A stretch of DNA of 64,000 nucleotides, taken from the NCBI GenBank assembly GCA_002069755.1, contig MWBX01000009.1, positions 14,514 through 78,513 on the forward strand, written 5' to 3'. Origin of the DNA: Parcubacteria group bacterium ADurb.Bin247. Lineage in GTDB: Bacteria; Patescibacteriota; Minisyncoccia; Minisyncoccales; CSSED10-335. A program made the translations under genes and the position numbers. Below the pieces are notes generated by a model that saw nothing but the letters and a program-made list of their open reading frames with translations, searched no databases and was not told the origin of the DNA. Positions within the stretch are counted from its first letter, which is position 1, and each line of letters starts with the position of its first letter. This document shows, one piece after another, positions 9,780 through 37,509 of this stretch.

Positions 9780-9823
9780 GAAATTATGATATATTGGTAT
9801 TAGTTCATTTGGGGGAGTGGGTT

Positions 9824-11358: not shown

Positions 11359-12315
11359 ATGAAAAAACTAATTAAAAGTTATTATTTCTGGACAATTTTT
11401 TCAATTATCGTACTGACATCAGCCTTTTTTCTTTTTTACAACTCAAGTGGTGATAAAGTAGCTGTTAGAATTAATGGAATAGATTTTAGCTATACTGAAT
11501 TTCAAAGAGAATTTGATAGTATTGTTAATAGTTATAATAATATGCCAGTTGATAAGGAGAAAGTTAAAAATACAGTAATTGATCGGCTTACAGAAAGGGC
11601 TATTATAACAGAAAAAATAAATGAGTTAGGGATAGAGTCATCTGAGGAAGAGTTTCAAACACAAATGGATCGTAATGTTAAAATGTTTGGATTTGAAACC
11701 GAAGAAGAATTAGTAAATACTCTTTTAGAGGGTGGTGTTTCTAGAAAAGAAATAGAAGATGCAATTGATTACGAGGTAGGGCTTAATAAACTAATTAAGC
11801 ATTATACCAATGGTTTTAATCCAACAGAAGAAGATCTAGAAGAAAAGTATGAATTATACTTATCAAGTATCGGAGAAGGAGAACCTATTGCGTTTGAAGA
11901 TATGAAAGAAGAATTAAGAGATTTAATAATTGAAGATTTTGGTTGGCAAAAAGTATTTGATTTAATAAACGAAAAGAAAAAAACTGTAGTAGTTGAGATT
12001 TTGATTCCAGATGAAGATATTATTTTTGAAGAAGTTGAACTTGAGAAGGTTTCGTCAGAATTTATCAGTTGTCTTAAAGACAAGGGAGTAACGATATATA
12101 CTAGTAGCACTTGCTCAGCCTGTGCTGTTTTGGTTCAGAAATATGGTGGTTATGATGTTTTATCTCCGATAGTAGTAGATTGTAACGAGGAACAAGATAG
12201 GTGTTCTAGAGAAATGTTAGAAGATACTGTTCCATCAGTGGTAATTAATGGTAAATTATTTCAAAAAGAAGGAACTCCAGAGAATCTTGCAAGAGAAACT
12301 GGTTGTAATTTATAG
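11359..12315 (+). CDS. membrane-anchored PrsA/PpiD/SurA-N-like chaperone domain fused to glutaredoxin/thioredoxin-like CxxC domain
   Basis: N-terminal TM helix. SurA_N-like segment (VAVRINGIDFSYTEF...LTERAIITEKINELGIESSEEEF). C-terminal TIYTSSTCSACAVL...VPSVVINGKLF resembles a Grx/NrdH fold. Confidence 0.5.
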   Translation: MKKLIKSYYFWTIFSIIVLTSAFFLFYNSSGDKVAVRINGIDFSYTEFQREFDSIVNSYNNMPVDKEKVKNTVIDRLTERAIITEKINELGIESSEEEFQTQMDRNVKMFGFETEEELVNTLLEGGVSRKEIEDAIDYEVGLNKLIKHYTNGFNPTEEDLEEKYELYLSSIGEGEPIAFEDMKEELRDLIIEDFGWQKVFDLINEKKKTVVVEILIPDEDIIFEEVELEKVSSEFISCLKDKGVTIYTSSTCSACAVLVQKYGGYDVLSPIVVDCNEEQDRCSREMLEDTVPSVVINGKLFQKEGTPENLARETGCNL

Positions 12316-12386
12316 TATTGACATTTTAATCTTAATATAATATACTAAACAATGCTCCTACCGGAGTTTTGTTTTAATTTAAAATT

Positions 12387-13925: not shown

Positions 13926-13927
13926 TT

Positions 13928-16900
13928 ATGTCTTTTTTTATTAAAAATTATAGGTTCACTTATTTAATATTAGTCGGAATATCAATTTTTGGTATTTTTG
14001 CAATACTTCAGATGCCAAAGGAGTCAGCTCCAGAAGTAGATATTCCTGTTATTGTTGTGAGCACAATTTTGCCCGGAGCTGGTTCGGAGAATGTAGAAGA
14101 GTTAATTACTAAGCCTATTGAAAATCAAATTTCGGGATTATCTGATATTGAATCAATGCAATCAATATCTAGTCAAGGAATATCAACTATTATTATACAA
14201 TTTAGTGCCTCGGTTGATAGCTCAGAAATGATAACCGAGATTAGATCTCGAGTTGCACGTGTTCAAGGTAGTTTTCCATTAAATACTAGAGACCCAGTTA
14301 TACAAAAAATTAGCTTTTCTGATGTTCCAATTATAAAGATATCTTTATCTGGAGATTATAGTTTAGTAGAACTTAAGAAATATGCTAAAGAATTAAAAGA
14401 AGAGATTGAATCAATAAACGGTGTTTCTCAAGTAAACATTATTGGGGCTCCTGATTCTCAAATACAAATAGAAATTGATAATAACAAGCTTTTTAGATAT
14501 GGATTATCAATAGAATATATAATAGGAATTATTGCTCAATCTAATATAGATAGTCCTATTGGGATTATAGAAAGTGGAGGTAACTATGCGGTTCGTTTTG
14601 ATGGTCAATTAAAAACAATTGAAGATATTTTAAATATTCCAATAATTGAAAAATCTAAGGCAATAATTACTGTTGGCGATGTGGCAACTGTCAAAGATGG
14701 TTTTTCTCCAACTGGTAGTATCACTAGGTTCAGTATAGATAAATCAACTCCGGAGCAAGCAGTATCTTTAAATGTTTTTAAAGAAAGCGGAGAAGGTAAT
14801 ATTTTGAAAATATCTGACGCTATTCAAGAATCAATATCGTTACTAGATATTTCTGGATTAAACATTAATATTATACAAAATGATGCTGATTTGATTAGAA
14901 ATGATCTTAATAATTTGGTACAAAGCGGACTTCTTACTATACTAATTATATTAATTATACTGGCATTTTTTCTTGGCTTTAAAGAGGCTTTGCTGGCAAG
15001 TACTGTTGTTCCTTTTTCTTTTTTAATATCATTTATTGTAATAGAGTATTTAGGTCTAACTATTAATTTTCTTACTCTTTTTTCTTTAATTTTATCTTTA
15101 GGAATACTAGTTGATGCATCTATTGTTGTAGTAGAGAGTATTTCTCGTAAAAAAACCGATGGTCAAGAGTTAGAATCTGCTATATATAGCACTATTAGCG
15201 AATTTAAAAATCCGTTAATAACAGGAACTCTAACTACTGTTTTTGCTTTTGCGCCTATGCTTTTAGTTTCTGGTATAATGGGCGAATTTATTAAAAGTAT
15301 TCCTTTAACTGTATCAACTGTCTTAATAGCTTCTTTGTTGGTAAGTTTAGGTATCATTACTACACTAGCGTCTAGGTTTTTAAGACAATGTAGTGTTACC
15401 AAAGATAGAATGGAACAATTAAATTTACGATATAGAAATTTACTTAGCAATATAATAGGGAACAATTTTTTAATGAATAAAATACTAATAGGTGTTTTAA
15501 TATTATTTGTTTTATCAACAACTTTGCCTTTTGTAGGAATTATTGAATCTAAGATGTTTCCTTTATCTGATTCTGAAAATATTACAATTAATGTAGAGTT
15601 GCCCTATGGGACAACCATAGAAAAGACTAACAATTTAGTAGAGGGAATAGAAGAATATTTATTAAAAGATGAAAATGTCTATTCATTTTTATCTACAATT
15701 GGTCAAGGATCTGGTGCTGGTAGTATTAATTTGACTAGTGCTTCTAAATCTCATCAGGCAAATATTTCTGTTAAGTTAAAAAAAGATAGAAATTTTACTA
15801 GTCAAGAGATTACTTTAAAATATATTAATGATTTAAATAATAAATTTCCTGAAGCTGAAATTAAAGTTAATCAACTAGAAGATCTGCCTATATCTGATAG
15901 TTCAATACAAGTTAACATTAAAGGAAAGGATCTTGATCAAATAGAATTAATTGCTCAAGATTTTGCAAAGATTCTTAAATCTATTGAAGGTGTTAGTGAT
16001 GTTGATGACGGGATAGAATCATCGTTGGGAGAGTTTGTTTTAATTCCCAAAAAAGAAAATCTTAGAAGGTATGGCTTAACTGTTTCTGATATTGCTCAAA
16101 GTATTAGAACTTCGGTTGCAGGCAGAACTGTTACTACAATACAAAAGACAGACGAAGAAGTTGAATTAATATTATTCTCTCAAACAGAAGAAGATAGATC
16201 CTTGGTAGATAACGTAGTTCCAATCGATATATCTTTTATTAAGTCATTGCCAATACAAACACAAAAAGGTATTGTGATGGCTGATTACTTTGTTGATATA
16301 GAACTAAAGCCAGGAAGAATATCTATTGAAAGGCAAGATAGAGATCGTGTTATTAGTGTTTCAGGTAATATTTTTCCAGGATATAATGCATCTAATATTA
16401 CCCAAGAATTTATGAATAAAATATCAGAGTTAGACTTGCCTAGTAGTATAAGTATTGATTATGGTGGTGAAATGGATCAAATACAAGAATCTTTCACAGA
16501 GCTTTTTAGGTCTATGCTTTTAGGAGTATTGATTATTTTTGCATTAATGGTTCTTCAGTTTAATTCTTATCGTCAATCAATATTTATTATTATAACAATA
16601 CCACTAGCGTTAATTGGTGTATTTTTTGGATTAGTATTAACTAGCCAGCCATTATCAATACCAGGATTTATTGGTATCGTTGCTTTAGCCGGTATTGTAG
16701 TAAATAATGCTATTATTTTAATAGATACAATGAATACTAGATATAGTGAAAGTAAAGATTTATCAAAATCAATTATTGATGGTGCTGTATCTCGATTCCG
16801 ACCAATACTTTTAACTACACTTACAACAGTATTTGGTCTTGTCCCCTTGGCTTTTGTTAGCCCTATTTGGGCGCCAATAGCTTATTCTATTATATTTGGA

Positions 16901-16969
16901 TTGATGTTTTCAACTATATTAACTCTTTTTATTATCCCAATATTGTATAAGAAATTTATTAATTTTTAA
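13928..16969 (+). CDS. RND family efflux transporter permease (AcrB/HAE1-like)
   Basis: 1013 aa with 12-TM architecture, two large periplasmic loops and conserved AcrB TM4/TM10 regions. Confidence 0.9.
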   Translation: MSFFIKNYRFTYLILVGISIFGIFAILQMPKESAPEVDIPVIVVSTILPGAGSENVEELITKPIENQISGLSDIESMQSISSQGISTIIIQFSASVDSSEMITEIRSRVARVQGSFPLNTRDPVIQKISFSDVPIIKISLSGDYSLVELKKYAKELKEEIESINGVSQVNIIGAPDSQIQIEIDNNKLFRYGLSIEYIIGIIAQSNIDSPIGIIESGGNYAVRFDGQLKTIEDILNIPIIEKSKAIITVGDVATVKDGFSPTGSITRFSIDKSTPEQAVSLNVFKESGEGNILKISDAIQESISLLDISGLNINIIQNDADLIRNDLNNLVQSGLLTILIILIILAFFLGFKEALLASTVVPFSFLISFIVIEYLGLTINFLTLFSLILSLGILVDASIVVVESISRKKTDGQELESAIYSTISEFKNPLITGTLTTVFAFAPMLLVSGIMGEFIKSIPLTVSTVLIASLLVSLGIITTLASRFLRQCSVTKDRMEQLNLRYRNLLSNIIGNNFLMNKILIGVLILFVLSTTLPFVGIIESKMFPLSDSENITINVELPYGTTIEKTNNLVEGIEEYLLKDENVYSFLSTIGQGSGAGSINLTSASKSHQANISVKLKKDRNFTSQEITLKYINDLNNKFPEAEIKVNQLEDLPISDSSIQVNIKGKDLDQIELIAQDFAKILKSIEGVSDVDDGIESSLGEFVLIPKKENLRRYGLTVSDIAQSIRTSVAGRTVTTIQKTDEEVELILFSQTEEDRSLVDNVVPIDISFIKSLPIQTQKGIVMADYFVDIELKPGRISIERQDRDRVISVSGNIFPGYNASNITQEFMNKISELDLPSSISIDYGGEMDQIQESFTELFRSMLLGVLIIFALMVLQFNSYRQSIFIIITIPLALIGVFFGLVLTSQPLSIPGFIGIVALAGIVVNNAIILIDTMNTRYSESKDLSKSIIDGAVSRFRPILLTTLTTVFGLVPLAFVSPIWAPIAYSIIFGLMFSTILTLFIIPILYKKFINF

Positions 16970-21229: not shown

Positions 21230-21718
21230 ATGAAAAAAATATATAGAAGTCAGGAAAATAAAATTGTTTTTGGTATATTCGGTGGTATTGGTGAATATTT
21301 TGATATTGACCCAGCAATATTTAGATTGGTTGGGCTAGCCCTTTGTTTCGCTACGGGTATTTTTCCCTTTATTTTAATTTATATTCTAGCTTATTTTGTT
21401 ATTCCTAGTAAAGAAAAAGAAACAAGTCAGGTTAAGAGATTATACAGAAGCAAAGATAATTACATTTTTTGTGGTATGTGTGGTGGTTTAGGTGAATATT
21501 TTAACATTGATCCAACAATAATTAGATTGTTTGCTATTTTATTATGCATACTAACTGCAATAATTCCTTTTATAATACTCTATACTGTTTCTTGTTTTGT
21601 TATTCCGACTGAAGACGGAGAAATAAAACCATTTCCTAAAAAGAAAATTATTTTAATAATATTTCTCTTATTATTAATTATGTTAGTTTCTGGATTAATA
21701 TATGGCTTGGAGTTTTAA
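21230..21718 (+). CDS. tandem PspC-domain membrane protein
   Basis: Two repeats of the PspC pattern (FGIFGGIGEYFDIDPAIFRL... and FCGMCGGLGEYFNIDPTIIRL...), each followed by a TM helix. Confidence 0.65.
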   Translation: MKKIYRSQENKIVFGIFGGIGEYFDIDPAIFRLVGLALCFATGIFPFILIYILAYFVIPSKEKETSQVKRLYRSKDNYIFCGMCGGLGEYFNIDPTIIRLFAILLCILTAIIPFIILYTVSCFVIPTEDGEIKPFPKKKIILIIFLLLLIMLVSGLIYGLEF

Positions 21719-22301
21719 CAAAGAGGTTGTTAGAAAGCTTTTGCATTTACTATCAATATTTATATTATTTTTCTATTTATTAATTAGTCACTATTTTAAT
21801 CATCAAATAGGGCTATTTTTTTTATCAGCGCTTTTAATTATCGCAATAACGTTAGAATATTTAAGAATAGAAGTTAATAGAAATGTTCCGATTATTAGTA
21901 TTTTATGGAAATACATTAGAAGAAAAAAAGAAAGAGATGCTATGGGCTCTGAGGTGTATTTTCTTTTAGGATCAATTATTGTTTTATCTGTTTTTGATAT
22001 TAGAATTGCAATTGTGGCAATATTAATGACAATATTTGGCGATGCAGTGGCAGCAGTTATTGGTTATAAATTTGGCAAAACCCCGATTAAATTTATTAAA
22101 GGAAAAGCATGGGAGGGTGTTCTTGCTCAGTTTGGTATTGATGTTTTGGTTGGATTATTAATTATGCCAAGTATGTGGTGGATAGTTATTACTATGGCTT
22201 TAGTGGCTACTAGTGTTGAAACAGCTAGTAGCAAAATAGATGATAATATCCTTATACCAATATTTAGTGGTTTTGCTGGACATATATTGCTTTTTTTATG
22301 A
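21702..22301 (+). CDS. CTP-transferase superfamily membrane protein (CdsA/dolichol-kinase-like)
   Basis: Multi-TM protein with GDAVAAVIGYKFGK...KAWEG, resembling the CdsA-family C-terminal signature (K-T/A-W-E-G). Confidence 0.45.
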   Translation: MAWSFNKEVVRKLLHLLSIFILFFYLLISHYFNHQIGLFFLSALLIIAITLEYLRIEVNRNVPIISILWKYIRRKKERDAMGSEVYFLLGSIIVLSVFDIRIAIVAILMTIFGDAVAAVIGYKFGKTPIKFIKGKAWEGVLAQFGIDVLVGLLIMPSMWWIVITMALVATSVETASSKIDDNILIPIFSGFAGHILLFL

Positions 22302-22969
22302 TTAAAAAAGAATTAAAATTAAACGCTAGCAAAGAAAAAGCTCAAACACTTCAAAGACTTTTTAAAACAAAGAAAGGGGAATATGGTTATGGAGATGTAT
22401 TTATTGGAGTAACTGTTCCAGTGCAGAGAAGTATAGTAAAAAATCATCCCGAATTAACGATTGATGATGCTATTGAATTACTTAGAGAGAAAATTCACGA
22501 ATACCGAAGCTGTGGCTTAATAATTCTAGTTGAAAAATACAAGCAGGGGAATCGAGATCATATTGTTGACTTATACTTTAAAAATACAAAATATATTAAT
22601 AGTTGGGACTTAGTAGATTTTTCGGCGCCTCAAATTTTAGGGGACTATTTCTTTTTAGAAGATAAATCTAGACTAAAGAAATTACTTTATTCTTCTAACT
22701 TATGGAAAAGAAGAATAGCGATTGTTTCCACCTTTGGTTTTATTAAAAAAGGCGATGTAAATACTACTTTTGAATACGCAAAAGAATTATTAAACGATAG
22801 ACATGATTTAATACACAAGGCAACTGGTTGGATGTTAAGAGAGGCTGGTAAAAGAGATAAACAATCTCTTAAAAAGTTTTTAAATGAAAACAAAATGCCC
22901 AGGATGACATTAAGATATGCAATTGAAAAGTTTAGTCTTGAAGAAAGAAGATACTATCTTAAACAATAA
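22298..22969 (+). CDS. DNA alkylation repair protein (AlkD/AlkC HEAT-like family)
   Basis: Typical PF08713-like sequence: LQRLFKTKKGEYGYGDVFIGVTVP...WDLVDFSAP...ATGWMLREAGKRD. Confidence 0.75.
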   Translation: MIKKELKLNASKEKAQTLQRLFKTKKGEYGYGDVFIGVTVPVQRSIVKNHPELTIDDAIELLREKIHEYRSCGLIILVEKYKQGNRDHIVDLYFKNTKYINSWDLVDFSAPQILGDYFFLEDKSRLKKLLYSSNLWKRRIAIVSTFGFIKKGDVNTTFEYAKELLNDRHDLIHKATGWMLREAGKRDKQSLKKFLNENKMPRMTLRYAIEKFSLEERRYYLKQ

Positions 22970-24041
22970 TCCTTTTTATCTTTGGATTGATTCTAGTTAT
23001 TACTTCGTAAGTTGATGTTTTGATTGTTTTAGCAATATCGTCGGAAGTAACAATGTCGTCTATTAAACTAACCTTGTCTCCAACTTTTACTCCTTTAATA
23101 TCGGTAACATCTACCATTGTCATATCCATACAGACTCGTCCAATAACTTTAGCTTTTTGTTTACGAACAACAACGTAACCAACACTGGATAAAGAATAGG
23201 GATATCCATGCCAATAACCAATTGGCAAAATGGCTATCTTTGAATCTCTTTTGACTTTTTCAGAAAAATTATAACCAACATAACTATTTTTAGGCAATTT
23301 TTTAATTTGAGTAATTATTGTTTTCCAAGAAAGAACTGGGCTTAATTTAATCTTACTTTGATAATATTCTTTTACTTCGCTAGATGGCCATATTCCATAA
23401 AGACCAATTCCGATTCTTACCATGTCAAAATGAGCTTGTGGAAATGTAATTGTTCCCGATGTTGCTGATGCATGTTTGATTAGGTTTTTAAAGCCACTAG
23501 ATTCAAACATCTCAATTGCTTTTTGAAAGTTTTGACATTGTTTAATAGTTGCTTTCTGATGAAGTGGACTTTTTGCAGCTGCAAAATGAGTATATATTCC
23601 CTCTACTGGAAAATTAATGTTTTTAATTAATTTAGGTATTTCTGATAAAAAGAATCCTTGTCGGTGCATTCCAGTATCTATTTTTAAATGGACCTTTGGT
23701 TTCCTAGGTAACTTGTTAACAATTTTAAGAGTATTAAAATCAGGAATAGTCAGTGTGATATCATTTTTAATAGCACTTTCAATTTTTTCATTAACGGTAT
23801 AACCCAAAACCAGAATTGGTTTTTTTATACCTGATTCTCTTAATCTTTCGGCTTCTACAATAGAATCAACTCCGAAATAGTCTACAAGGTCATCAATTAG
23901 TAGAGAAAAATCTACTAAGCTATGACCATAAGCGTTAGATTTAACTATGGCCATAAGTTTACACTTAGGGCTAATTAATTTTCTAAAAACTTGGTAGTTC
24001 TTTTCTATTCTTTTTTTGTCTATCTCAATCCATGTTCTCAT
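22959..24041 (-). CDS. alr: alanine racemase
   Basis: PLP-lysine motif MAIVKSNAYGHS (AVVKANAYGHG family), TIM-barrel plus C-terminal beta domain. 360 aa. Confidence 0.9.
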   Translation of the reverse strand: MRTWIEIDKKRIEKNYQVFRKLISPKCKLMAIVKSNAYGHSLVDFSLLIDDLVDYFGVDSIVEAERLRESGIKKPILVLGYTVNEKIESAIKNDITLTIPDFNTLKIVNKLPRKPKVHLKIDTGMHRQGFFLSEIPKLIKNINFPVEGIYTHFAAAKSPLHQKATIKQCQNFQKAIEMFESSGFKNLIKHASATSGTITFPQAHFDMVRIGIGLYGIWPSSEVKEYYQSKIKLSPVLSWKTIITQIKKLPKNSYVGYNFSEKVKRDSKIAILPIGYWHGYPYSLSSVGYVVVRKQKAKVIGRVCMDMTMVDVTDIKGVKVGDKVSLIDDIVTSDDIAKTIKTSTYEVITRINPKIKRIIV

Positions 24042-24096
24042 ATATACAACTATACAATACTTGCATTATTTTTACAAATATTGCTATTATGTAGTT

Positions 24097-24507
24097 ATGA
24101 ACAAAGAATTAATAATAGGCTTAGTTGGCTTGGCTCTTATTGGAATAGTTGTTTTTACAAACCAAACAAATTACTGTATTTTTATAGACCCAATAACTAA
24201 TAAAGAGTTCAATGTCTATATTAAGAACAATGATTTTAAGATGGAAGATAGTGAAACGTCTATTATGTCAAAAGACGGCATTGTTTATGTTTGGACATCT
24301 GATAGTGACGATGGTTTAAAATTTCCCAATTCTAAACTAAATGAGTATGGTTTTTATAATATAGAAGATGACTTTATTAAAGAAAATTTAAGTAATTGTT
24401 CTAAAACAACAAAAGAATTCTTTTCAATACCTGAAAGCGTTGATTTCTACGATCCAAGTGATGGTTTTTTCGGACCAAGTATTAATTTTGAATACAAAAA
24501 TGATTGA
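24097..24507 (+). CDS. hypothetical secreted/membrane-anchored protein
   Basis: Internal ATG followed by a signal/TM helix LIIGLVGLALIGIVVF. Acidic C-terminal part. Confidence 0.4.
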   Translation: MNKELIIGLVGLALIGIVVFTNQTNYCIFIDPITNKEFNVYIKNNDFKMEDSETSIMSKDGIVYVWTSDSDDGLKFPNSKLNEYGFYNIEDDFIKENLSNCSKTTKEFFSIPESVDFYDPSDGFFGPSINFEYKND

Positions 24508-24706: not shown

Positions 24707-25102
24707 ATGAAAGGATATATTGCAAATATAGAAGAAGTAACAAAAGAAAACAATAATTTTAGAAAAGTTCTCTATACTGGGAAAAACAGCCAATTGGTTG
24801 TTATGAGTATTAACCCCGGTGAAGAAATAGGGGCCGAAGTTCACAAGCTTGATCAATTTATAAGAATTGAAGAAGGTGAGGGTAGTGTTATTCTTGATGG
24901 TGTAGAGCATGTTATTAAAGATGGTTATGCGGTTGTAATTCCCGCTGGAACTAATCATAATGTTTTGAACAGTTCTAATAAAGTTATGAAGTTATACAGC
25001 ATTTACTCTCCGGCTGAACATAAGGATGGTATAATTCATGTAACTAAGACGGACGCTCTCAATGATCACGATGACCACTTTGATGGAAAAACTACCGAAT
25101 AG
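24707..25102 (+). CDS. cupin domain protein
   Basis: Two-motif cupin pattern (MSINPGEEIGAEVH ... VIPAGTNHNV). Confidence 0.65.
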   Translation: MKGYIANIEEVTKENNNFRKVLYTGKNSQLVVMSINPGEEIGAEVHKLDQFIRIEEGEGSVILDGVEHVIKDGYAVVIPAGTNHNVLNSSNKVMKLYSIYSPAEHKDGIIHVTKTDALNDHDDHFDGKTTE

Positions 25103-26159
25103 AGAGGTTACTATAGAAAAGAAAGATTGTCTATTAGAAAAAATAGATGGTTTTCTCTTTGAAATAGAGCCAGAAATTGCCGAAAGAATAAAGAACTATG
25201 ATAGCTCAATTACACTAGATCATATTAAAAAGAATATTAACGATTCTTTTTTATATGATATAAATTTTATTAGTATTACAAAGGATAAAACTGTTATAAA
25301 ATTAGATTCTGAAATTAAAAAAGAAATTGAAGCTAAGAATTTTATTTTAGAATTAAAAGAAAAGGTTATTAATTTATCCGAAGAAGATTTTAATCAAATA
25401 GAAGAAGAAAGTAATGAACATATTGTGGCTTATTTCTATTCTTTGAGATCTAAAAATAAGGATTGTTCATTTGATCAACTAAAAAATTTACTAATAATTT
25501 CTTTTGAAGAATCAATATCTAGATGCGACGAAAATATTGAGAATTACAATAATATTAAAAATAAAATAGAAAGCTTTGATTCTGATTATTTTTTTGACTT
25601 GCTAATCAGAAAACTTGATGGAAATATTAGCAAGACAGAGAAAGTAATGATTTCTTTGATGGGTTATGATGTTTATGGGTTATCGTATGGTACATATGAT
25701 CCAACTACAAATAATATCCAGACCCCACTTCTTAATTCTTGCGATTTAAAACAATTGAAGGGAACAATTATGCACGAATTAACCCATATAATGCTTGGTA
25801 ATATTTTAGAACGGCCTAAAAAAAATAATTTTATCAAATCAATAAAATCTAAACTTTATTCCGATTATAAAAAAACAACCGATTTTGATATGGCTGTGTT
25901 TGCTCTAGACGAATCCCTGGCTTATTGTGTTCAAGAGAAATACGAAAATGACCCAGTGGTTCCTCCATATGATGGTTATCGGTTTATCGATCCAATAACA
26001 TTTAAATTGTTTTTTGAGACAATTCAAAATCAGACAAAAAATATGAATATTGAGGAGTTTGATTTATTTAGCAAAGATGTTTATCTTTATTTTGCTGATA
26101 AAAAAGATATCAATTCTACAATAAATTATATTAAAAATTATAATGTTAATAAAAATTAA
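25062..26159 (+). CDS. hypothetical protein with HExxH metallopeptidase-like motif
   Basis: GTIMHELTHIM and a downstream ALDESLAY (possible third ligand). Otherwise has no recognisable fold. Confidence 0.45.
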   Translation: MITMTTLMEKLPNREVTIEKKDCLLEKIDGFLFEIEPEIAERIKNYDSSITLDHIKKNINDSFLYDINFISITKDKTVIKLDSEIKKEIEAKNFILELKEKVINLSEEDFNQIEEESNEHIVAYFYSLRSKNKDCSFDQLKNLLIISFEESISRCDENIENYNNIKNKIESFDSDYFFDLLIRKLDGNISKTEKVMISLMGYDVYGLSYGTYDPTTNNIQTPLLNSCDLKQLKGTIMHELTHIMLGNILERPKKNNFIKSIKSKLYSDYKKTTDFDMAVFALDESLAYCVQEKYENDPVVPPYDGYRFIDPITFKLFFETIQNQTKNMNIEEFDLFSKDVYLYFADKKDINSTINYIKNYNVNKN

Positions 26160-26704: not shown

Positions 26705-27572
26705 ATGAAGAAAAAAATAATAATTATAGCCCTAATTTTGTTGGTAATTTTTTTGCTTGTTCGTAATAATGACGATAAGCCTGAGCAAAATATTTATACT
26801 GTTGAATTAGGAACTATTACACAAGAAATTTTTGAACCCGGAACAATAAAAAAGGGAGATGAAATTAATTTATCTTTTGCTAACTCTGGTCGAATAAAAA
26901 AAATATATTTTAAAGAAGGGGACATTGTGAAAAAAAACGAAACAGTGGCAATATTAGATACTGACGTTTTAAATATTAATCTAGAAAAAGCAAAATTAAA
27001 TTTAAGTTCAAAAAGAAATTAGTCTTTTAAACAAAATGATTAACGATTCGGTAATCAAAGCTCCTACAGACGGCAAAATAATAAGGATAAATTTTAAAGA
27101 TCTAGAAGTAGTTCAAGTTGGAATTCCAGTAGTAACAATGGTTTCGGAAAATATTTATCAGGTAGAACTTAATATATATGAAGGTGATATTTCTAAAATT
27201 AATATTGGCGATCCAGTAACAATAGAAGTTGTTGCTATTCCAAACAAAAAGTTTAGCGGTAATGTTTCTTTTATTGATGTTGCATCAAAAGTTATAGACA
27301 GTGTAATTTATTATAAAGTGCTGATAGATATTGATAATCCTAGTGATAAAATGAAAGTAGGAATGACAGCTGATGTCACGATAACCCCATATAAAAAAGA
27401 GAATGTTTTGGTTATTCCTGAGAGAGCAATCACAGATTCAAAGGTTAGTTTAATTAAAACAAATGAAGTAATAGAAGAAAGGGCTATTAAAACTGGATTA
27501 TCAGGGTCTAATCGTATGATAGAAGTTTTATCTGGCCTAGAAGTTGGTGATAAAATTATTATTCCAAAATGA
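26705..27572 (+). pseudogene. MacA/HlyD-type periplasmic adaptor interrupted by +1 frameshift at an A-run
   Basis: The 26705-27022 ORF (TM plus lipoyl half) stops at TAG. The remainder (27036-27572: ...VIKAPTDGKII..., beta-barrel and MP domain) continues in another frame. The frames can be joined around caaaaagaaatt (27009-27020). Confidence 0.5.
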
Positions 27573-28002
27573 CCAATATTATCAAGATAGAAAATGTTTG
27601 GAAAACATATGACCTTGGAAAAATTAAACTGGATGTTTTAAAAAATATTAGTTTAGAAATTAATCAAGGAGATTTTGCAATAATTCTAGGTCCTAGTGGT
27701 TCAGGCAAGTCAACACTACTAAATCTCATAAGTTGTTTGGATGTTCCAACTAAAGGCAGCATCTATTTTAAAGGGAAAAGTATATCCGAATTCTCCGAAG
27801 ATGAACTTGCCGAAGTAAGAGGTAAAGATATTGGATTTGTTTTTCAAAAATTTAATTTATTACCACATCTAACTGCATTAGAAAATGTAGTTTTGCCAAC
27901 AATAAAGAGGGTAAAACAATAATAGTAGTAACGCATAATAATAATCAAACGAAATACGGAAACAGAATAATAAAAATTAAAGACGGAGAAATAGTAAAAT
28001 AA
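27569..28002 (+). pseudogene. MacB/LolD-type ABC ATPase with about 300-bp internal deletion plus frameshift
   Basis: Walker A (GPSGSGKST) through the Q-loop (LLPHLTALENVVLP) is intact to 27922. Signature LSGGQ, Walker B and D-loop are missing. The H-loop/C-terminus VVTHNNNQTKYGNRIIKIKDGEIVK is readable in another frame (27925-28002), with a TAATG junction to the permease. Confidence 0.55.
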
Positions 28003-29210
28003 TGTATTGGGAATATTTTAAAATCGCAGTTAAAAATTTAAGAGTGAGACCACTAAGAAGTTGGCTTACTATTTTAGGTATAGTTATTGGTATTTTTTTA
28101 GTAACAACACTAATGTCTCTAAGTGAAGGTCTTAAAAATTCAATAATGGGCGAACTTCAAACAATGGGGGGCGATTTAATAATTGTTATGCCCGGAGAAG
28201 ATATGTTTTCTGGCCTTATGGGAGGCAACGATTTAACAAATGCCGATTTAAATGGAATAGAAAGAACTGTAGGTGTAGAAACTGTAATTTCAATGCCATG
28301 GGGATCTGAAATTGTAAGATACAAAAACGAAGCCAAGACAGTACTTATTACTGGAATATCTTTTGACAAAACAATGACGCTATTAAAAGAAGATATGGGG
28401 TGGGAAACTGTTGAGGGAGATTTTCCAAGAACCGGAAGAAGAGAAATTCTTTTAGGTAATTTGGTTGCTAAAAATATATTACCTGGTATTAGGGTTGGTG
28501 ACGAAGTCACTATAAAGGGAAAAAGGTTTTATGTCTCGGGATATTTAAGGTCTCTAGGCAACAATCAAAACGATTCAATGATTATGATGGATTTAGAAGA
28601 TTATCATACCGTAACTGGAAAAAGAGAAGGAGCTCCAATGGCTATGGCAAAAGTTGCTCCAGGTTTTGATGTTGCAGAAGTTGTTAAAAATATTGAAGAT
28701 TCGCTAGAAGAAACTAGGAAAAGAAGAGTCGGGGAAGAAACACCTTCTTTTTCAGTTATTTCAAGTGATACTGTATCTGATATGGTTAGTAGTATTATGG
28801 GGATATTGCAAGTTGCTATTTTTGCTTTTGCAAGTATTGCAATAATTGTTGGCGGAATTGGAGTAACTAACACAATGTTTACGTCGGTAAATGAAAGAAC
28901 AAAAGAAATCGGAATACTGAAAGCTGTTGGAGCCAAAAGATCTGATATTGTTGCAATATTTTTATTTGAATCGGGTATTATTGGATTAATTGGTGGTGTC
29001 TTGGGAGTAACTCTAGGAGTTGTAGCATCAAAAGGGACTGAATTTGTGCTAGCTCAACTGGAGCAAATGTTTTATCTAGAGGCTCATATATCAATCTCTC
29101 TAATCTTATTTGGAATTGCGTTTTCTTTTTTTGTTGGTTGTATTTCAGGTTATTTCCCAGCTAAAAAGGCTGCAATGTTAGAACCTGTTGACGCTTTAAG
29201 ATATGAATAA
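28002..29210 (+). CDS. ABC transporter permease (MacB/FtsX family)
   Basis: N-terminal TM, MacB-type periplasmic domain and C-terminal FtsX 3-TM bundle. 402 aa. Confidence 0.8.
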   Translation: MYWEYFKIAVKNLRVRPLRSWLTILGIVIGIFLVTTLMSLSEGLKNSIMGELQTMGGDLIIVMPGEDMFSGLMGGNDLTNADLNGIERTVGVETVISMPWGSEIVRYKNEAKTVLITGISFDKTMTLLKEDMGWETVEGDFPRTGRREILLGNLVAKNILPGIRVGDEVTIKGKRFYVSGYLRSLGNNQNDSMIMMDLEDYHTVTGKREGAPMAMAKVAPGFDVAEVVKNIEDSLEETRKRRVGEETPSFSVISSDTVSDMVSSIMGILQVAIFAFASIAIIVGGIGVTNTMFTSVNERTKEIGILKAVGAKRSDIVAIFLFESGIIGLIGGVLGVTLGVVASKGTEFVLAQLEQMFYLEAHISISLILFGIAFSFFVGCISGYFPAKKAAMLEPVDALRYE

Positions 29211-30453
29211 TAGATTTGAAGAACCAATATCAGTTTCGGAATATATTCAGTTCTTGAACGAATTGCTTGGTAGAATTCAAGTTAAATTAATAGGAGAAGT
29301 AGTCCAATTAAAAATACATCAACCAAGCGGTCATGTATACTTCACCCTTAAAGATAAAGAAGGAGCGGTTATTAACTGTGTTATTTGGAAATACAATTAT
29401 CGTATGTGTGGAGTTTCTTTAACCGAAGGGATGACAGTAATTATATCTGGTGGTGCCGACATTTATCCAGTTAGGGGCACTTTAACATTTAAAGCAAATA
29501 CGGTAGAGTTAGTTGGTGCTGGGGCTCTAAAGAAAGCCTATGACGAATTGAAAGCTAAATTACAAAAAGAAGGATTATTTGATAATAAAAGACCAATTCC
29601 CGATTATCCACAAAAAATCGGAGTGATAACTTCATTATACGGCGGAACTGTAATTCACGACTTTACAAGTAATCTTGGCAAGTTTGGTTTTAAAATTAAA
29701 GCAATTAATGCTAAAGTAGAGGGGGTAGAAGCAGTTAAAGAATTACTGTCAGCCATTAATCAATTTAAAAAAGAAGATATTGATGTTTTAGTAGTTATTC
29801 GTGGTGGTGGTTCGCTAGAATCGTTAATTGCTTTTGACAATGAAATATTAGTTAGAGAAATTGCTAATTTTCCCGTACCAGTTATTGCAGGAATTGGACA
29901 TCATAAAGATGTAACATTGGTTTCTCTTGCAGCTGATGCAACTGAGTCAACTCCAAGTGCTGCAGCTTATTTTTTGAATAAATCATGGGAAAATGCTATA
30001 CACAAGGTCAATTCTTATAATTCTGAAATTATTAATTCTTTTACTTACGCTCTACAAAAAACAAACAAAAGAATTGAATTGTCATTAGATTTTATTATAA
30101 GAAATTTTAATAATATATTTGAAGAGTATACTAGAATAGAAGTTAAAATAAAAGGATTATTAATGAAAATACAAAGTCAAATTATTAATAATCAAAATAA
30201 TTTAGAGTCTTTAAAGATAAAAATATTAAGAGACTTTATTGAAAATCTAGATCATCAAAAAAGAATTATTATTAATTTTGATCAAATAATACATTATAAC
30301 AACCCCGAAAAACAATTAAAAATGGGTTATAGTATATCTAGAATTAATGGAAAAATTATTAAAGATATAAATCAAGTTAAAGTAGATGACAATATTGATA
30401 TTCAAATTTTAAACGGAATAATTAAATCAAAAATCAAAAAAATAAAAAAATGA
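29203..30453 (+). CDS. xseA: exodeoxyribonuclease VII large subunit
   Basis: N-terminal OB-fold (GEVVQLKIHQPSGHVYFTLKD), catalytic core and coiled-coil C-terminus. Confidence 0.9.
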   Translation: MNNRFEEPISVSEYIQFLNELLGRIQVKLIGEVVQLKIHQPSGHVYFTLKDKEGAVINCVIWKYNYRMCGVSLTEGMTVIISGGADIYPVRGTLTFKANTVELVGAGALKKAYDELKAKLQKEGLFDNKRPIPDYPQKIGVITSLYGGTVIHDFTSNLGKFGFKIKAINAKVEGVEAVKELLSAINQFKKEDIDVLVVIRGGGSLESLIAFDNEILVREIANFPVPVIAGIGHHKDVTLVSLAADATESTPSAAAYFLNKSWENAIHKVNSYNSEIINSFTYALQKTNKRIELSLDFIIRNFNNIFEEYTRIEVKIKGLLMKIQSQIINNQNNLESLKIKILRDFIENLDHQKRIIINFDQIIHYNNPEKQLKMGYSISRINGKIIKDINQVKVDDNIDIQILNGIIKSKIKKIKK

Positions 30454-30653
30454 CTAAAAAAAACTTAGGAGATAATTTAAAAAAGCTAGCAGAGATTTCA
30501 AGGTGGTTTGACGAAAAAGAAGAGGTTGATGTTGAAGAAGGTTTAAAAAAAGTGAAAGAAGCGGCTCTAATTATCAAAGAAAGCAAATCAAGATTACAAG
30601 AAATAGAAAACGAATTTGAAGAAATAAAGAAATCTATTGATGATGAATTTTAA
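30450..30653 (+). CDS. xseB: exodeoxyribonuclease VII small subunit
   Basis: 67-aa helical protein overlapping the xseA stop. LEELEEIVkkLE-like pattern. Confidence 0.85.
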   Translation: MTKKNLGDNLKKLAEISRWFDEKEEVDVEEGLKKVKEAALIIKESKSRLQEIENEFEEIKKSIDDEF

Positions 30654-31977
30654 AAATAAAAAAATAATCATAACTGGTTTTGTTGTACTGGTGAGTTTCT
30701 CCATTTTTGGCCTTAAAAGTGGTGAGTTTAATATAATTGCCGAAGATAATAGCGAAGAGGTAGTGATTACCATACCACCGGTTTATGAAAACGAAATCCC
30801 TTTGGTTGAAGATACTTTAGATAGCTTAATCAATAATAAATCAACTTTTATATATATTAATCTAGAAAATATGAAAGCTGATTTATATAAAGATGGAAAT
30901 TTAGACCAAGAAATACCAATATTGGCAAGAGGTAATGATTTAGAATGGAGTGGTAGCCCGGCTGGAATACACGAAGTATTAGCTAGTTATGTTACAGCTT
31001 ATTCGGTATCTTCCTATGTTTATATGCCTTATGCAATTCAATATTATGGTAAATACTTTACTCACGGAGTACCTTATTATCCAGGAGGAAAGAAATTAGT
31101 TTCTAGGTATTCTGGAGGATGTTTAAGATTCAGCAATGAGAATGCTAAAAAGATTTTTGATTTCTCTAAAAAAGGGATGCCGGTTATTGTAATAGATAAA
31201 AATCGGGATGATTTTAGTGGATTTGAGAATCCAACACCTTTTCCTGAGTCAACTTCGGAGAGCTATCTTATTGCAGATTTAAAATCAGGTCATATTTTTG
31301 CTCAAAAAAATATTAACCAAAAAATGCCAATTGCATCAATAACCAAATTAATGACTGCTTTGGTTGCAGTAGAAAATATTGACCTAAAGAAGAATATAAC
31401 CATAACTAAAGAAGATCTTGAATACTATGGTGATAATTTAGGAATAGAAATAGGAGATAAGCACCAGTTAATTCAACTGCTTTATCCAACGCTCACTCGA
31501 TCAGCTAATCATACTGCTGAGGCAATACGTAGATCTTTAGGATCAGATAGTTTAGAAATGATGAATAAAAAAGCAAAAACTTTGATGATGAATAATACAT
31601 TTTTTGCTGATGGTTCGGGTTTAGATAAAAACAATGTATCAACTGCTCAAGATTTATTTTATTTAGGAAGATATATATATTACAATCGTTATCCATTACT
31701 TGAAATAACTAAAGGAAAAACAGTACCACTAGCAAGAACAATGGATTTTGACCTAGAAGAAATTGGTAATCTCAATATATTTATTAACGATCCAACTTTT
31801 ATTGGTGGTAAAACTGGATATACTAAAGAAGCTGGGCAAACAGCATTATTTTTATTTAAGCTTAACTATAACGATTCTGAAAGAATTATTGCAATGATAT
31901 TTTTAAATGCCAAAAATTCAAAATGGGAAACCCAAAAAGCATATAGATGGTTATTGAATAATGGTTTTGAAATGTAA
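30637..31977 (+). CDS. bifunctional L,D-transpeptidase (YkuD) / D-alanyl-D-alanine carboxypeptidase (S11) fusion, membrane anchored
   Basis: LDT motif THGVPYYPGGKKLVSRYSGGCLRFSN (H-G...S-x-G-C-x-R). S11 motifs follow: SITK (SxxK), SAN (SxN) and KTGYT (KTG) at PBP5-like spacing. Confidence 0.7.
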   Translation: MMMNFKNKKIIITGFVVLVSFSIFGLKSGEFNIIAEDNSEEVVITIPPVYENEIPLVEDTLDSLINNKSTFIYINLENMKADLYKDGNLDQEIPILARGNDLEWSGSPAGIHEVLASYVTAYSVSSYVYMPYAIQYYGKYFTHGVPYYPGGKKLVSRYSGGCLRFSNENAKKIFDFSKKGMPVIVIDKNRDDFSGFENPTPFPESTSESYLIADLKSGHIFAQKNINQKMPIASITKLMTALVAVENIDLKKNITITKEDLEYYGDNLGIEIGDKHQLIQLLYPTLTRSANHTAEAIRRSLGSDSLEMMNKKAKTLMMNNTFFADGSGLDKNNVSTAQDLFYLGRYIYYNRYPLLEITKGKTVPLARTMDFDLEEIGNLNIFINDPTFIGGKTGYTKEAGQTALFLFKLNYNDSERIIAMIFLNAKNSKWETQKAYRWLLNNGFEM

Positions 31978-32915
31978 TGTTGATAGATAATATAAAAATT
32001 AAAGTGGCTGGCGGTACTGGTGGCAACGGAATTGTCGCTTTTAGTAAAGAAATGATGTGTTCAGGACCAACTGGAGGTGATGGAGGTGATGGGGGTAATG
32101 TTGTTTTAGTAGGAGTTGAAGATATTGGTGCTTTTAAAAAGTTTAGATATCAAAAAGAATTTATTGCCCAAAAAGGTCAACACGGTAAAGGATCTTCTCG
32201 TACTGGCGCTAATGGTAAAGATTTAATCCTGGAAGTACCAATAGGAACTGTTATCCATGGAATAGACAAAGAAATAGTTAAAATTGGGGAAACTATTGTT
32301 TTAGCTAAAGGAGGTCGTGGTGGTAAAGGTAATGCTTCGTTCAAATCTTCTAGAAATGTTAGCCCAAAACAGTTTACTAACGGATTACCCGGAGAAGCCA
32401 AAGAAGTTGTTTTAGAATTAAAACTCATTGCTGATATTGGGCTAGTTGGATTACCTAATACCGGGAAGTCATCTCTTTTAAATTATTTAACTAATGCTAA
32501 AAGCAAAGTTTCTAATTATCAGTTTACAACTCTTGAACCTCATTTAGGAGTTTACAAAAATTTAATTTTGGCCGATATTCCCGGTATAATTGAGGGCGCC
32601 TCTACTGGTAAAGGGCTTGGAATTAAGTTTTTAAGACATATTGAGAGAACTAAAATAATATTTCATTTAATTTCTCTAGATTCTTCTGATTTTGTAAACG
32701 ACTATAATATTATTCGTAAAGAATTAGAAAGTTATAATAAATTATTAACTCAAAAACCAGAATATATTATTGCTACCAAATCTGACTTAGTGGATAATAA
32801 TATTATTTCTAAATTTAAAAACAAATTCAAAGATTCAATTGTAATTTCTATTTATGACAAAAACGAAGAATTATTTTCTTTATTAGCTAAAATATCTAAA
32901 GATAAAAATGTATAA
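31977..32915 (+). CDS. obg: GTPase Obg (no C-terminal extension)
   Basis: Gly-rich Obg fold (GGTGGNG...GGDGGDGGNV) and G-domain (GLPNTGKSSL, DIPG, ATKSD). Confidence 0.9.
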   Translation: MLIDNIKIKVAGGTGGNGIVAFSKEMMCSGPTGGDGGDGGNVVLVGVEDIGAFKKFRYQKEFIAQKGQHGKGSSRTGANGKDLILEVPIGTVIHGIDKEIVKIGETIVLAKGGRGGKGNASFKSSRNVSPKQFTNGLPGEAKEVVLELKLIADIGLVGLPNTGKSSLLNYLTNAKSKVSNYQFTTLEPHLGVYKNLILADIPGIIEGASTGKGLGIKFLRHIERTKIIFHLISLDSSDFVNDYNIIRKELESYNKLLTQKPEYIIATKSDLVDNNIISKFKNKFKDSIVISIYDKNEELFSLLAKISKDKNV

Positions 32916-35538: not shown

Positions 35539-36775
35539 ACTATTAATCAAAAACGTTCTATTGAATGGTAAAAAAAATGATATTTTTTGCCAAAATGGAA
35601 TTATTCAAAAGATAGATAAAAAAATATCTAAAAAATCTGACATTGTAATTGATTGTAAAGGTGAGAAATCAGCAATTCCTGGATTAATTAATGGTCATAC
35701 TCATTCTGCAATGAGTCTTTTGCGTGGTATTGGTGATGATATGCCACTTAAAGAGTGGCTAGAAGATAGAATATGGCCAATAGAAGAAAAACTTTCAAGT
35801 GATGATATATATTGGGGAACCAAATTCGCTTGTCTTGAAATGATTAAAAATGGTATCTTGTTTTATAACGAAATGTATATGTTTCCTGAAATTTCAATGC
35901 AAGCTAGTGAAAAAATGGGCATAAGATCGGTAACAGGTTTAGTTGTTATGGATGTTCCTAAACCAAAAGATGTTAAAGAAATTGAAAAAAAATATCAAAA
36001 AATAAAAGAAACTGAACTATCTAAAATATCTATTAGTCCTCATAGCATCTATACGGTTTCCAAAGAAAATTTAAAATGGATAGTATCATTTGCTAAAAAA
36101 AATAATTTAATAATTCATATTCATGTGTCGGAGACAAAAGATGAGGTAGATTTTTCAATTAAAAACTATAAACAAAAGCCTATTAACTTTCTAGATAGTA
36201 TTGGACTATTAACAAAAAGAACAGTTATGGCTCATGGTGTTTGGATAGATGACGAAGAAATGGAAATTATTGGTAAGAGAAAATCTTCTCTAATATATAA
36301 TCCAACATCAAATCTAAAATTGGCAGTGGGTAAAATATTTCCTTATGATAAAGCAAAAAAATATAAAGTTAATGTTGCGCTAGGAACAGATGGCTCAGCA
36401 TCTAATAACAATTTAGATCTGCTAGAAGAAATGAAAATAGGAAGCTTAATTCAAAAATATATTCAAAACAATCCAACTGCTTTGCCAGCTCAAGAAATAC
36501 TTGATTGTGCTACTATTAATGGAGCGCGAGCTTTTGGTCTTAATTCAGGAATAATTAGTGTTGGTAAGAACGCTGACATCGCTTTAATTAATATGAAAGA
36601 TATTTCATTAATACCTGGTCATAATTTAGTTTCTGACTTAGCTTATTCTGCTTCAGGATCAGTTATATCTGATTTGATTTGCAATGGATTGCCAATTATG
36701 CTAAATAGGAAGGTAGAGAACGAGAATAGGATAATAAGTGAGTTTAAAAAAAGATCTAAAAATATAACAAAATGA
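35522..36775 (+). CDS. amidohydrolase-family nucleoside deaminase (MtaD / SAH-MTA deaminase-like)
   Basis: PGLINGHTHSAMSLLRG...LKEWLEDRIWP, HIHVSE and GTDGSASNN metal-binding motifs. Confidence 0.7.
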   Translation: MQKKDKLLIKNVLLNGKKNDIFCQNGIIQKIDKKISKKSDIVIDCKGEKSAIPGLINGHTHSAMSLLRGIGDDMPLKEWLEDRIWPIEEKLSSDDIYWGTKFACLEMIKNGILFYNEMYMFPEISMQASEKMGIRSVTGLVVMDVPKPKDVKEIEKKYQKIKETELSKISISPHSIYTVSKENLKWIVSFAKKNNLIIHIHVSETKDEVDFSIKNYKQKPINFLDSIGLLTKRTVMAHGVWIDDEEMEIIGKRKSSLIYNPTSNLKLAVGKIFPYDKAKKYKVNVALGTDGSASNNNLDLLEEMKIGSLIQKYIQNNPTALPAQEILDCATINGARAFGLNSGIISVGKNADIALINMKDISLIPGHNLVSDLAYSASGSVISDLICNGLPIMLNRKVENENRIISEFKKRSKNITK

Positions 36776-37509
36776 CAAAAGGATTTACTCTCAAATCGTT
36801 TATTCTTATAGTCGGTATTTTACTCGTACTTGCTTTATTGATTTTAACCTTTTCAAATAAAGAAAAGGATCTTAGTGATGTTGACATAGTTGAAGATTTC
36901 TATAATCAATATATCAATAATCAATTTGTTGACACTAATTTAATAACCGAAGACTTAAAGGTACAATTAGATAATTCTGATATTTCTGCAGTATTATGTT
37001 CTTCTTCATTTGACGATATTGCGATAGAAAAAGTTGAAACTAATAATGATTTTGTAGAAGTATATTTAAAGAATTTAGAAAATCCAATCAATGTCTACAC
37101 TATTAAACAAGATGGAGAATCAAAGATAAATAATATTGTTTGCACAATACCATTAAAAGATGAATATATTGAAGAACAAGAAGAAGAACAACAAGAACAA
37201 CAAGAAGAAGAACAACAAGAACAACAAGAAATTACAAACGAAATAATAATTCCCGAAGCGGCCAAAAGTTTGGTTAATTTAGCCAAGAATGATTTAGCTC
37301 AAAGATTAAGTGTTGATATTAATAATATTATAACTGTAAGGTTAGATGATGTTAATTTTTCAGATACTAGTTTAGGTTTATCTAAGCCAGGAGAAATGTA
37401 TGCTCAAGTAATAACACCGGGATACATTATTGTTTTAGAAGTTAATAATAAATATTATCGCTATCATACCGATAAATCTAGCGTTGTAGTATTTGTAACC
37501 GAAGATTAA
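36772..37509 (+). CDS. hypothetical membrane-anchored protein with acidic E/Q repeat
   Basis: N-terminal TM helix and EEQEEEQQEQQEEEQQEQQE low-complexity block. Confidence 0.45.
   Translation: MTKGFTLKSFILIVGILLVLALLILTFSNKEKDLSDVDIVEDFYNQYINNQFVDTNLITEDLKVQLDNSDISAVLCSSSFDDIAIEKVETNNDFVEVYLKNLENPINVYTIKQDGESKINNIVCTIPLKDEYIEEQEEEQQEQQEEEQQEQQEITNEIIIPEAAKSLVNLAKNDLAQRLSVDINNIITVRLDDVNFSDTSLGLSKPGEMYAQVITPGYIIVLEVNNKYYRYHTDKSSVVVFVTED
37171..37230. repeat. perfect 24-bp tandem duplication (gaagaagaacaacaagaacaacaa x2) inside coding sequence
   Basis: 37180-37203 is identical to 37204-37227. Partial copies flank both sides. Encodes EEEQQEQQ x2. Confidence 0.8.

Follow-up and report, generated by a model that had tools for sequence, protein, structure and literature searches.

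A protein of Parcubacteria-type bacteria that unites a YkuD-family L,D-transpeptidase domain with a Peptidase_S11 domain

We analyzed a stretch of 64,000 nucleotides (referred to below as the window) from Parcubacteria group bacterium ADurb.Bin247 (GenBank assembly GCA_002069755.1, contig MWBX01000009.1, positions 14,514 to 78,513 of the forward strand), in which a single gene encodes a polypeptide of 446 amino acids that combines a predicted YkuD-family L,D-transpeptidase (LDT) with a predicted class C low-molecular-weight penicillin-binding protein (PBP) of the Peptidase_S11 family. Such a fusion had been proposed in a preliminary description made from the letters of the DNA; in a domain search, both Pfam domains scored above their curated cutoffs, and the motifs that had been quoted (HG, SGGC, ASITK, SAN, and KTGYT) were all found on reading the sequence. 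The fusion is genuine and common in Patescibacteria, in Parcubacteria-type lineages. We consider it reasonably probable that the protein is a bifunctional enzyme, in which tetrapeptide stems are produced by the S11 half and then joined by 3-3 cross-links through the LDT half. The coordinates of the gene, its domains and motifs, and the neighboring genes are given in Table 1.

In the N-terminal half, the match to the YkuD profile (PF03734) covered positions 2–146 of the 146 in the profile, with an E value of 3e-09 and a score of 38.1 bits against a cutoff of 23.4. The best match of a profile of residues 50–200 in the PDB was Enterococcus faecium Ldtfm (3zg4/1zat), and in this alignment the HG of the fusion protein was placed on the IHD of Ldtfm and its SGGC on the SHGC. 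The catalytic His was followed, approximately 15–20 residues on, by the Cys of an [ST]-x-G-C motif, which is the spacing of the YkuD family. Because the S11 half dominated the Foldseek search with the model of the whole protein, which gave S11 matches only, the N-terminal half was modeled separately (predicted local distance difference test (pLDDT) score, 87.2). The top Foldseek matches of this second model were all LDT structures, with E values of 3e-9 to 6e-7 and template modeling (TM) scores of approximately 0.65, and the matched folds were those of Mycobacterium abscessus Ldt2, LdtMt1, LdtMt2, Ldtfm, and Bacillus subtilis YkuD. The helical cell shape determining protein Pgp2 of Campylobacter jejuni, known as an L,D-carboxypeptidase, was also among the fold matches (E = 5.6e-7). 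From its profile, its catalytic residues, and the YkuD β-sandwich fold of its model, the N-terminal half is assigned to the YkuD-family L,D-transpeptidases, and 3-3 cross-linking itself is the predicted activity.

In the C-terminal half, the Peptidase_S11 profile (PF00768) matched residues 203–402 with an E value of 1.6e-32 and a score of 113.3 bits against a cutoff of 27.6. The best sequence matches in the PDB were Mycobacterium tuberculosis DacB1 (4ppr; 5e-23) and B. subtilis DacB (3mfd; 3e-22), followed by Pseudomonas aeruginosa PBP5 (4k91), M. tuberculosis Rv2911 (4p0m/4rye), and then the PBP7-type endopeptidases (6muq and 6azi). In these alignments, ASITK, SAN, and GGKTGYT fell on the catalytic motifs of the solved enzymes, DacB1 and B. 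subtilis DacB among them. When the model of the whole protein was searched with Foldseek, the top matches were 4rye, 3mfd, 4ppr, and 4k91, with E values of 1e-18 to 1e-16 and target TM scores of 0.6–0.8. As judged from these alignments and the model, the C-terminal half is an S11 class C low-molecular-weight PBP with a penicillin-binding (beta-lactamase-like) fold.

The preliminary description had named two findings that would speak against its assignments, a C-terminal half resembling a non-catalytic beta-lactamase-like domain and an LDT His and Cys placed differently from those of YkuD; the register of the serine motifs with those of DacB1 and DacB, the alignment with Ldtfm, and the matches of both models to S11 and LDT structures pointed the other way in each case. 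Its term "PBP5-type" for the C-terminal half had to be given up. No PBP5_C domain was matched in Pfam, nothing was matched beyond residue 402, and the protein stops at residue 446, 44 residues past KTG. There was no C-terminal membrane helix, the sole hydrophobic helix of the fusion protein being N-terminal. In the NCBIfam equivalog models, PbpG scored 80.6 against a cutoff of 294, DacD 43.4 against 610, and DacA 32.6 against 694, and the cutoff of DacC was not reached either. The S11 half is a short domain, of the DacB/PBP7 size class.

The N-terminal hydrophobic helix is preceded by a basic KNKK stretch, and an AlphaFold2 model of the whole protein, built on 36 homologues, had a helix at residues 6–24. 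No lipobox cysteine was present at the N-terminus on inspection of the sequence. Because a hydrophobic helix follows a basic stretch without a lipobox Cys, it is probably an uncleaved signal anchor, which agrees with the N-terminal membrane anchor proposed earlier; in the topology deduced from it, both catalytic domains would lie outside the cytoplasm. The full-length model had a pLDDT of 88.4 and a predicted TM score of 0.88, and the region of the interdomain linker (residues 181–210) was modeled at a pLDDT of 89–96.

An identical protein of 445 amino acids is present on 16 contigs. The 120 best homologues in a collection of 5.8 billion proteins nearly all had both Pfam domains in 420–500 amino acids; where named, their sources were Parcubacteria, Nealsonbacteria, or "Patescibacteria group", and their database labels were generic (DacB precursor, serine hydrolase, and L,D-transpeptidase family protein). 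When 1.84 billion cluster representatives (50% identity) were searched exhaustively, 406 had an E value of 1e-30 or below, and the top 150 of these were collinear over both domains. Among the GTDB species, each represented by one genome, 125 stretches encoded a relative; the best 80 of these were kept, and they corresponded to 77 distinct loci. The named GTDB sources included Nealsonbacteria, Gribaldobacteria, Wildermuthbacteria, Staskawiczbacteria, Vogelbacteria, Ryanbacteria, Minisyncoccales, and Paceibacterota. No informative name outside Patescibacteria occurred among the relatives, and no search able to reveal such cases was made. As for the distribution across the candidate phyla radiation (CPR), a survey of which had been suggested, the homologue, cluster, and GTDB searches indicated that the fusion is widespread in Patescibacteria.

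To describe the conservation of the catalytic sites, we used two sets of relatives. In an alignment of 36 homologues with 42–79% identity, the residues S159/G160/G161, S234/K237, S289/N291, and K392/T393/G394 were invariant, and H143 and C162 were retained in at least 90% of the sequences. Residues Y436, W438, L439, and N442 of a C-terminal helix were likewise invariant. The two exceptions (P0006 and P0013; approximately 45–47% identical) had Ser in place of C162 (SGGS), and one of them also had Tyr in place of H143; P0013 is named Nealsonbacteria, and both proteins were without a YkuD domain in precomputed Pfam matches. The second set consisted of 136 full-length divergent cluster representatives (among P0121–P0270), which were aligned locally with small register shifts allowed; the counts that follow are approximate, as they come from automatic alignment of distant sequences. 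Both catalytic sets were intact in 74 of the 136, and the window protein falls in this group. The LDT His and Cys were kept and at least one S11 motif, often the serine nucleophile, was lost in 48, and the S11 motifs were kept and the LDT cysteine lost in 14. The fused fold is thus retained in many lineages as a probable pseudoenzyme.

We inspected three loci with a decayed S11 half, which is a small sample, and found a stand-alone Peptidase_S11 gene near the fusion (within approximately 1 kb) in two of them. At locus L086, the fusion reads ASVASN, SSQ, and GVVG at the three S11 motif positions, and a stand-alone S11 gene for 316 amino acids with SISK, SNN, and KTG (12200–13150) lies approximately 870 bases, or one gene, downstream of the fusion. 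At L087, a stand-alone S11 gene for 320 amino acids with SITK, SVN, and KNG (8831–9793, minus strand) is located immediately upstream. The third locus had no stand-alone S11 gene within 10 kb. A neighboring S11 gene with active-looking motifs is what would be expected if the LDT needs S11 activity nearby.

In the mechanism that we propose, the single N-terminal helix would tether the fusion enzyme to the membrane, and both catalytic domains would lie on the outer side. The S11 serine D,D-peptidase would remove D-Ala5 from pentapeptide stems or cut 4-3 cross-links, and either reaction would yield tetrapeptide stems close to the surface of the membrane. The YkuD half, rigidly held beside the S11 half, would take the tetrapeptide as an acyl donor: Cys162 would attack the bond between residue 3 and D-Ala4, D-Ala4 would leave, and the side-chain amine on residue 3 of a neighboring stem would resolve the thioester, giving a 3-3 cross-link. 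The fusion would also set a 1:1 ratio and place the donor-producing site beside the donor-consuming site. The topology, the substrates, the reaction order, and the 3-3 product are inferred. The underlying premise of the preliminary description, that LDTs receive their tetrapeptide donors from class C PBPs, has been established for separate proteins. In Escherichia coli, cross-linking by LDTs alone depends on YcbB and also on the D,D-carboxypeptidase DacA (PMC5089857). Class C PBPs can feed tetrapeptides to LDTs through either of their reactions, carboxypeptidase or endopeptidase, M. tuberculosis DacB2 being an example (PMC6736417). That DacB1 and DacB2 rank high among the structures matched by the S11 half supports this donor-supply interpretation. 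The fusion, its gene neighborhood, and its conservation fit the same logic; the channeling of 3-3 cross-link formation that had been suggested is an inference.

Several observations weigh against the proposed mechanism. Sequence cannot separate a carboxypeptidase from an endopeptidase, and the closest matches include both kinds; of the D,D-carboxypeptidase domain announced in the preliminary description, the membership in the S11 D,D-peptidase family stood and the choice of carboxypeptidase over endopeptidase did not. The best NCBIfam model for the S11 half was in fact that of the endopeptidase PbpG, although far under its cutoff. For the other half, a review lists YkuD enzymes that are L,D-carboxypeptidases or endopeptidases, anchor proteins, exchange D-amino acids, or build non-canonical D-amino acids into peptidoglycan (PMC12729407). 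These roles are not distinguishable by sequence or fold, and Pgp2 is one of the fold matches. The neighbors of the fusion gene are housekeeping genes, and the context was unconserved at four divergent loci. Finally, the 48 of 136 divergent relatives that retain the fusion have done so despite lost S11 motifs; therefore, sequential catalysis in cis cannot alone explain why the fusion persists.

We regard it as unlikely that the two halves act as successive trimming enzymes, the S11 half removing D-Ala5 and the YkuD half, as an L,D-carboxypeptidase, removing D-Ala4, so that a pentapeptide becomes a tetrapeptide and then a tripeptide, which would limit cross-linking or shape the cell instead of creating 3-3 bonds. 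Two fused exopeptidases would make a logical two-step pathway, and the Pgp2 match would suit it, given the L,D-carboxypeptidase activity of Pgp2. The YkuD family does include L,D-carboxypeptidases (PMC12729407), and LDTs with a carboxypeptidase side activity in vitro have been described (PMC10980060). However, the best sequence and fold matches were the cross-linking enzymes Ldtfm, M. abscessus Ldt2, LdtMt1, and LdtMt2, a comparison that discriminates weakly between the two activities.

A different role for the YkuD half was considered in connection with a recurring partner of the fusion. In YkuD and S11 relatives of 765–800 amino acids, a CapA-type PGA_cap domain (PF09587) is fused at the C-terminus; this arrangement was also seen, as one open reading frame (ORF) each, in five species-representative loci (L070, L075, L080, L081, and L082). 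In two further loci, the PGA_cap domain is encoded by an overlapping downstream gene (L037, 4190–5245; L044, 4169–5245), and at L086 a PGA_cap gene (13894–15027) lies approximately 2.6 kb downstream of the fusion gene. The sole PDB match of PGA_cap was an entry named poly-gamma-glutamate synthesis protein, and no link between PGA_cap and the cell wall was found in the literature searched. The repeated fusion or adjacency of the relatives to a domain named for capsule-polymer synthesis would be consistent with a YkuD half that attaches a protein, a surface polymer, or a free D-amino acid to stem residue 3, the S11 half preparing the tetrapeptide donor; the anchoring of proteins and the incorporation of non-canonical D-amino acids by YkuD enzymes (PMC12729407) would be precedents. 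We nevertheless consider attachment quite improbable for the window protein: neither the protein itself nor any of the approximately 50 window ORFs scanned contained PGA_cap, no candidate substrate protein was conserved nearby at four loci, and the PGA_cap linkage was limited to about 8 of 86 loci.

There is likewise little probability that the S11 half is non-hydrolytic, acting either as a K15-like D,D-transpeptidase, such that both 4-3 and 3-3 links are formed, or as a stem-binding module that targets the LDT to new wall rich in D-Ala-D-Ala. Streptomyces K15 D,D-transpeptidase was a significant match in both sequence and fold, and the 48 divergent relatives that keep an S11 fold without its catalytic residues show that the fold has a non-catalytic value in this family. 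Against this, the window protein shares all three S11 motifs, without variation, with its close relatives, which points to catalysis, and the closest matches were carboxypeptidases or endopeptidases at E values of 1e-23 to 1e-15, compared with 1e-5 for K15.

A merger of two neighboring genes by an assembly or frameshift error has practically no probability, although the LDT and S11 halves occur as separate overlapping ORFs at one locus (L084, 2878–3564 and 3554–4237), and such an artefact is excluded by the distribution data, with the identical protein on its 16 contigs and single-ORF fusions in more than 100 species genomes and more than 400 sequence clusters, and by a linker that is conserved and confidently modeled. 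The separate ORFs of L084 may represent a genuine division of the two halves or may result from a frameshift or an error in sequencing.

Returning to the bifunctional enzyme, a broader and tentative extension of it, which we regard as rather unlikely, is that Parcubacteria-type Patescibacteria possess a dedicated, constitutive 3-3 module built on this fusion and that L,D-transpeptidation is a main cross-linking route in them. In such a module, the S11 fold would double as a stem-binding partner, and for this reason it would survive catalytic decay beside an active S11 gene; the metallophosphoesterase-like PGA_cap domain would be a third, hitherto unrecognized component of the wall pathway.

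Genetic studies of E. coli, enterococci, and mycobacteria, in all of which the two enzymes are separate proteins, established that LDTs depend on D,D-carboxypeptidases for tetrapeptides. One close functional counterpart is the E. coli pair LdtD (YcbB) and DacA (PBP5), in which, as proposed here, a D,D-carboxypeptidase feeds a YkuD LDT that makes 3-3 links (PMC5089857). These are two separate proteins, whereas the activities are fused in the protein described here; E. coli PBP5 has a C-terminal domain and a C-terminal membrane helix, both of which are absent from the fusion protein, and YcbB is a much larger LDT than the YkuD half. In M. tuberculosis, DacB1 (Rv3330) and DacB2 (Rv2911) were among the best matches of the S11 half (4ppr, 4rye, and 4p0m), the LdtMt and Ldt_Mab structures were top matches of the N-terminal half, and DacB2 feeds LDTs as both a carboxypeptidase and an endopeptidase (PMC6736417). 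However, DacB1, DacB2, and LdtMt1–5 are encoded by separate genes, the identity of the mycobacterial S11 domains to that of the fusion is approximately 23–26%, and the mycobacterial LDTs have extra Ig-like domains, unlike the fusion protein. In E. faecium, Ldtfm, which headed the sequence matches of the YkuD half, is paired with DdcY. The Ldtfm pathway relies on a D,D-carboxypeptidase; the title of the cited paper (PMC4161250) names the activation of l,d-transpeptidation by a metallo-d,d-carboxypeptidase. The metallo-enzyme DdcY has no relationship to S11, and Ldtfm and DdcY are separate, regulated proteins.

One PDB entry, 4xxt from Clostridium acetobutylicum, resembles the fusion in architecture, as known from the entry name: a domain of the Zn-dependent DD-carboxypeptidase family is fused to an ErfK-family domain. 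The YkuD part of 4xxt matched the N-terminal half of the fusion protein, whereas its peptidase is, by the same name, a zinc enzyme and not a serine S11 PBP. The entry may represent an analogous, non-homologous fusion of a carboxypeptidase and an LDT; we found no published function for it. Within the searchable literature, no paper describing a YkuD and Peptidase_S11 fusion was found, and a 2025 review of LDTs is silent on it. Hundreds of copies are deposited in public databases with generic names. Taken singly, the two halves are ordinary members of well-known families, and the functional coupling of such enzymes is textbook knowledge for separate proteins; what the searched literature does not describe is the covalent fusion.

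At the start of the gene, TTG 30637 directly precedes ATG ATG, and the identical protein in public gene calls (P0001) has 445 amino acids; for these two reasons, the true start is probably ATG 30640. The end of xseB overlaps the start of the fusion gene by 14–17 nucleotides (30637–30653), and the TAA stop of the fusion gene overlaps the ATG of obg in TAATG (31975–31979). Because of this stop/start overlap, the fusion gene and obg are probably co-transcribed, and the tight overlaps of the frames suggest a single transcript that mixes genes for DNA repair, the wall, and a ribosome-associated GTPase. Beyond obg lie genes for a UvrD/PD-(D/E)XK helicase and an amidohydrolase. The order xseA-xseB-fusion-obg-helicase was seen again at L007, whose fusion protein is 52% identical, and was not kept in more distant relatives. 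As the context is not conserved, the gene neighborhood of the window gene gave no functional clue. A conserved operon partner was also considered and rejected, as the context was housekeeping in content and variable across the four divergent loci compared.

We scanned approximately 50 ORFs of the 64-kb window for other peptidoglycan enzymes. No other PBP or LDT was found among them, murC and alr being the only peptidoglycan genes seen; from the presence of these two genes, D-Ala-containing precursors are made. A search with tblastn revealed no paralogue of the fusion gene in the window. Apart from wall genes, the window contained, at 12387–16969 and 27036–29210, an RND-type AcrB transporter (1013 amino acids, 608 bits) with an HlyD-family partner and a second HlyD fragment by a MacB/FtsX permease. 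Such efflux machinery is usually discussed for double-membrane bacteria; here it occurs in a genome whose relatives are Patescibacteria. Five ORFs of 163–365 amino acids (25062–26159, 36772–37509, 3166–3753, 21702–22301, and 24016–24507) were matched by neither Pfam nor NCBIfam models at the thresholds applied.

Table 1. Positions in the window of the fusion gene, the parts of its product, and other genes
Feature	Position	Strand	Basis or remark
YkuD + Peptidase_S11 fusion gene, predicted membrane-anchored product, 446 aa	30637..31977	+	ORF list, Pfam
N-terminal hydrophobic helix, residues 9-26, KIIITGFVVLVSFSIFGL	30661..30714	+	Kyte-Doolittle mean up to 2.0 over 19 residues
YkuD-type LDT catalytic domain, residues 70-185	30844..31191	+	Pfam PF03734
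LDT catalytic motif H143-G ... S159-G-G-C162-L-R164	31063..31128	+	Sequence reading; Ldtfm alignment
Interdomain linker, residues 186-202	31192..31242	+	Predicted ordered (AlphaFold2)
Peptidase_S11 (class C low-molecular-weight PBP) domain, residues 203-446	31243..31974	+	Pfam PF00768
SxxK motif S234-I-T-K237 (serine nucleophile, general-base lysine)	31336..31347	+	
SxN motif S289-A-N291	31501..31509	+	
KTG motif K392-T-G394, reading K392-T-G-Y-T	31810..31818	+	
xseA	29203..30453	+	Pfam Exonuc_VII_L; upstream of fusion gene
xseB	30450..30653	+	TIGR01280, 23.9 bits, below cutoff of 35; upstream of fusion gene
obg GTPase	31977..32915	+	Pfam GTP1_OBG; downstream of fusion gene
murC	50516-51802	+	TIGR01082, 390 bits against cutoff of 335
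Alanine racemase (alr)	22959-24041	-	

The fusion is neat rather than startling, and some value is added by its wide distribution in Patescibacteria, by the reciprocal decay of its active sites with compensation by a neighboring gene, and by the PGA_cap partner. Both this decay and the recurrence of PGA_cap are concrete, testable leads. As a natural and widely conserved arrangement, the fusion provides independent evolutionary evidence for the coupling of D,D-carboxypeptidases and LDTs, and it offers a compact single-protein system in which to study the hand-over of the donor. Both families are targets of beta-lactams, penams and cephems in the case of PBPs and carbapenems in the case of LDTs; therefore, one protein would report on both classes of drug. 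The results suggest that 3-3 cross-linking is built into the wall synthesis of a very large group of uncultured bacteria with small genomes. If the tentative dedicated module were real, L,D-transpeptidation would be a main, and not an accessory, means of cross-linking the wall throughout a large radiation of uncultured bacteria.

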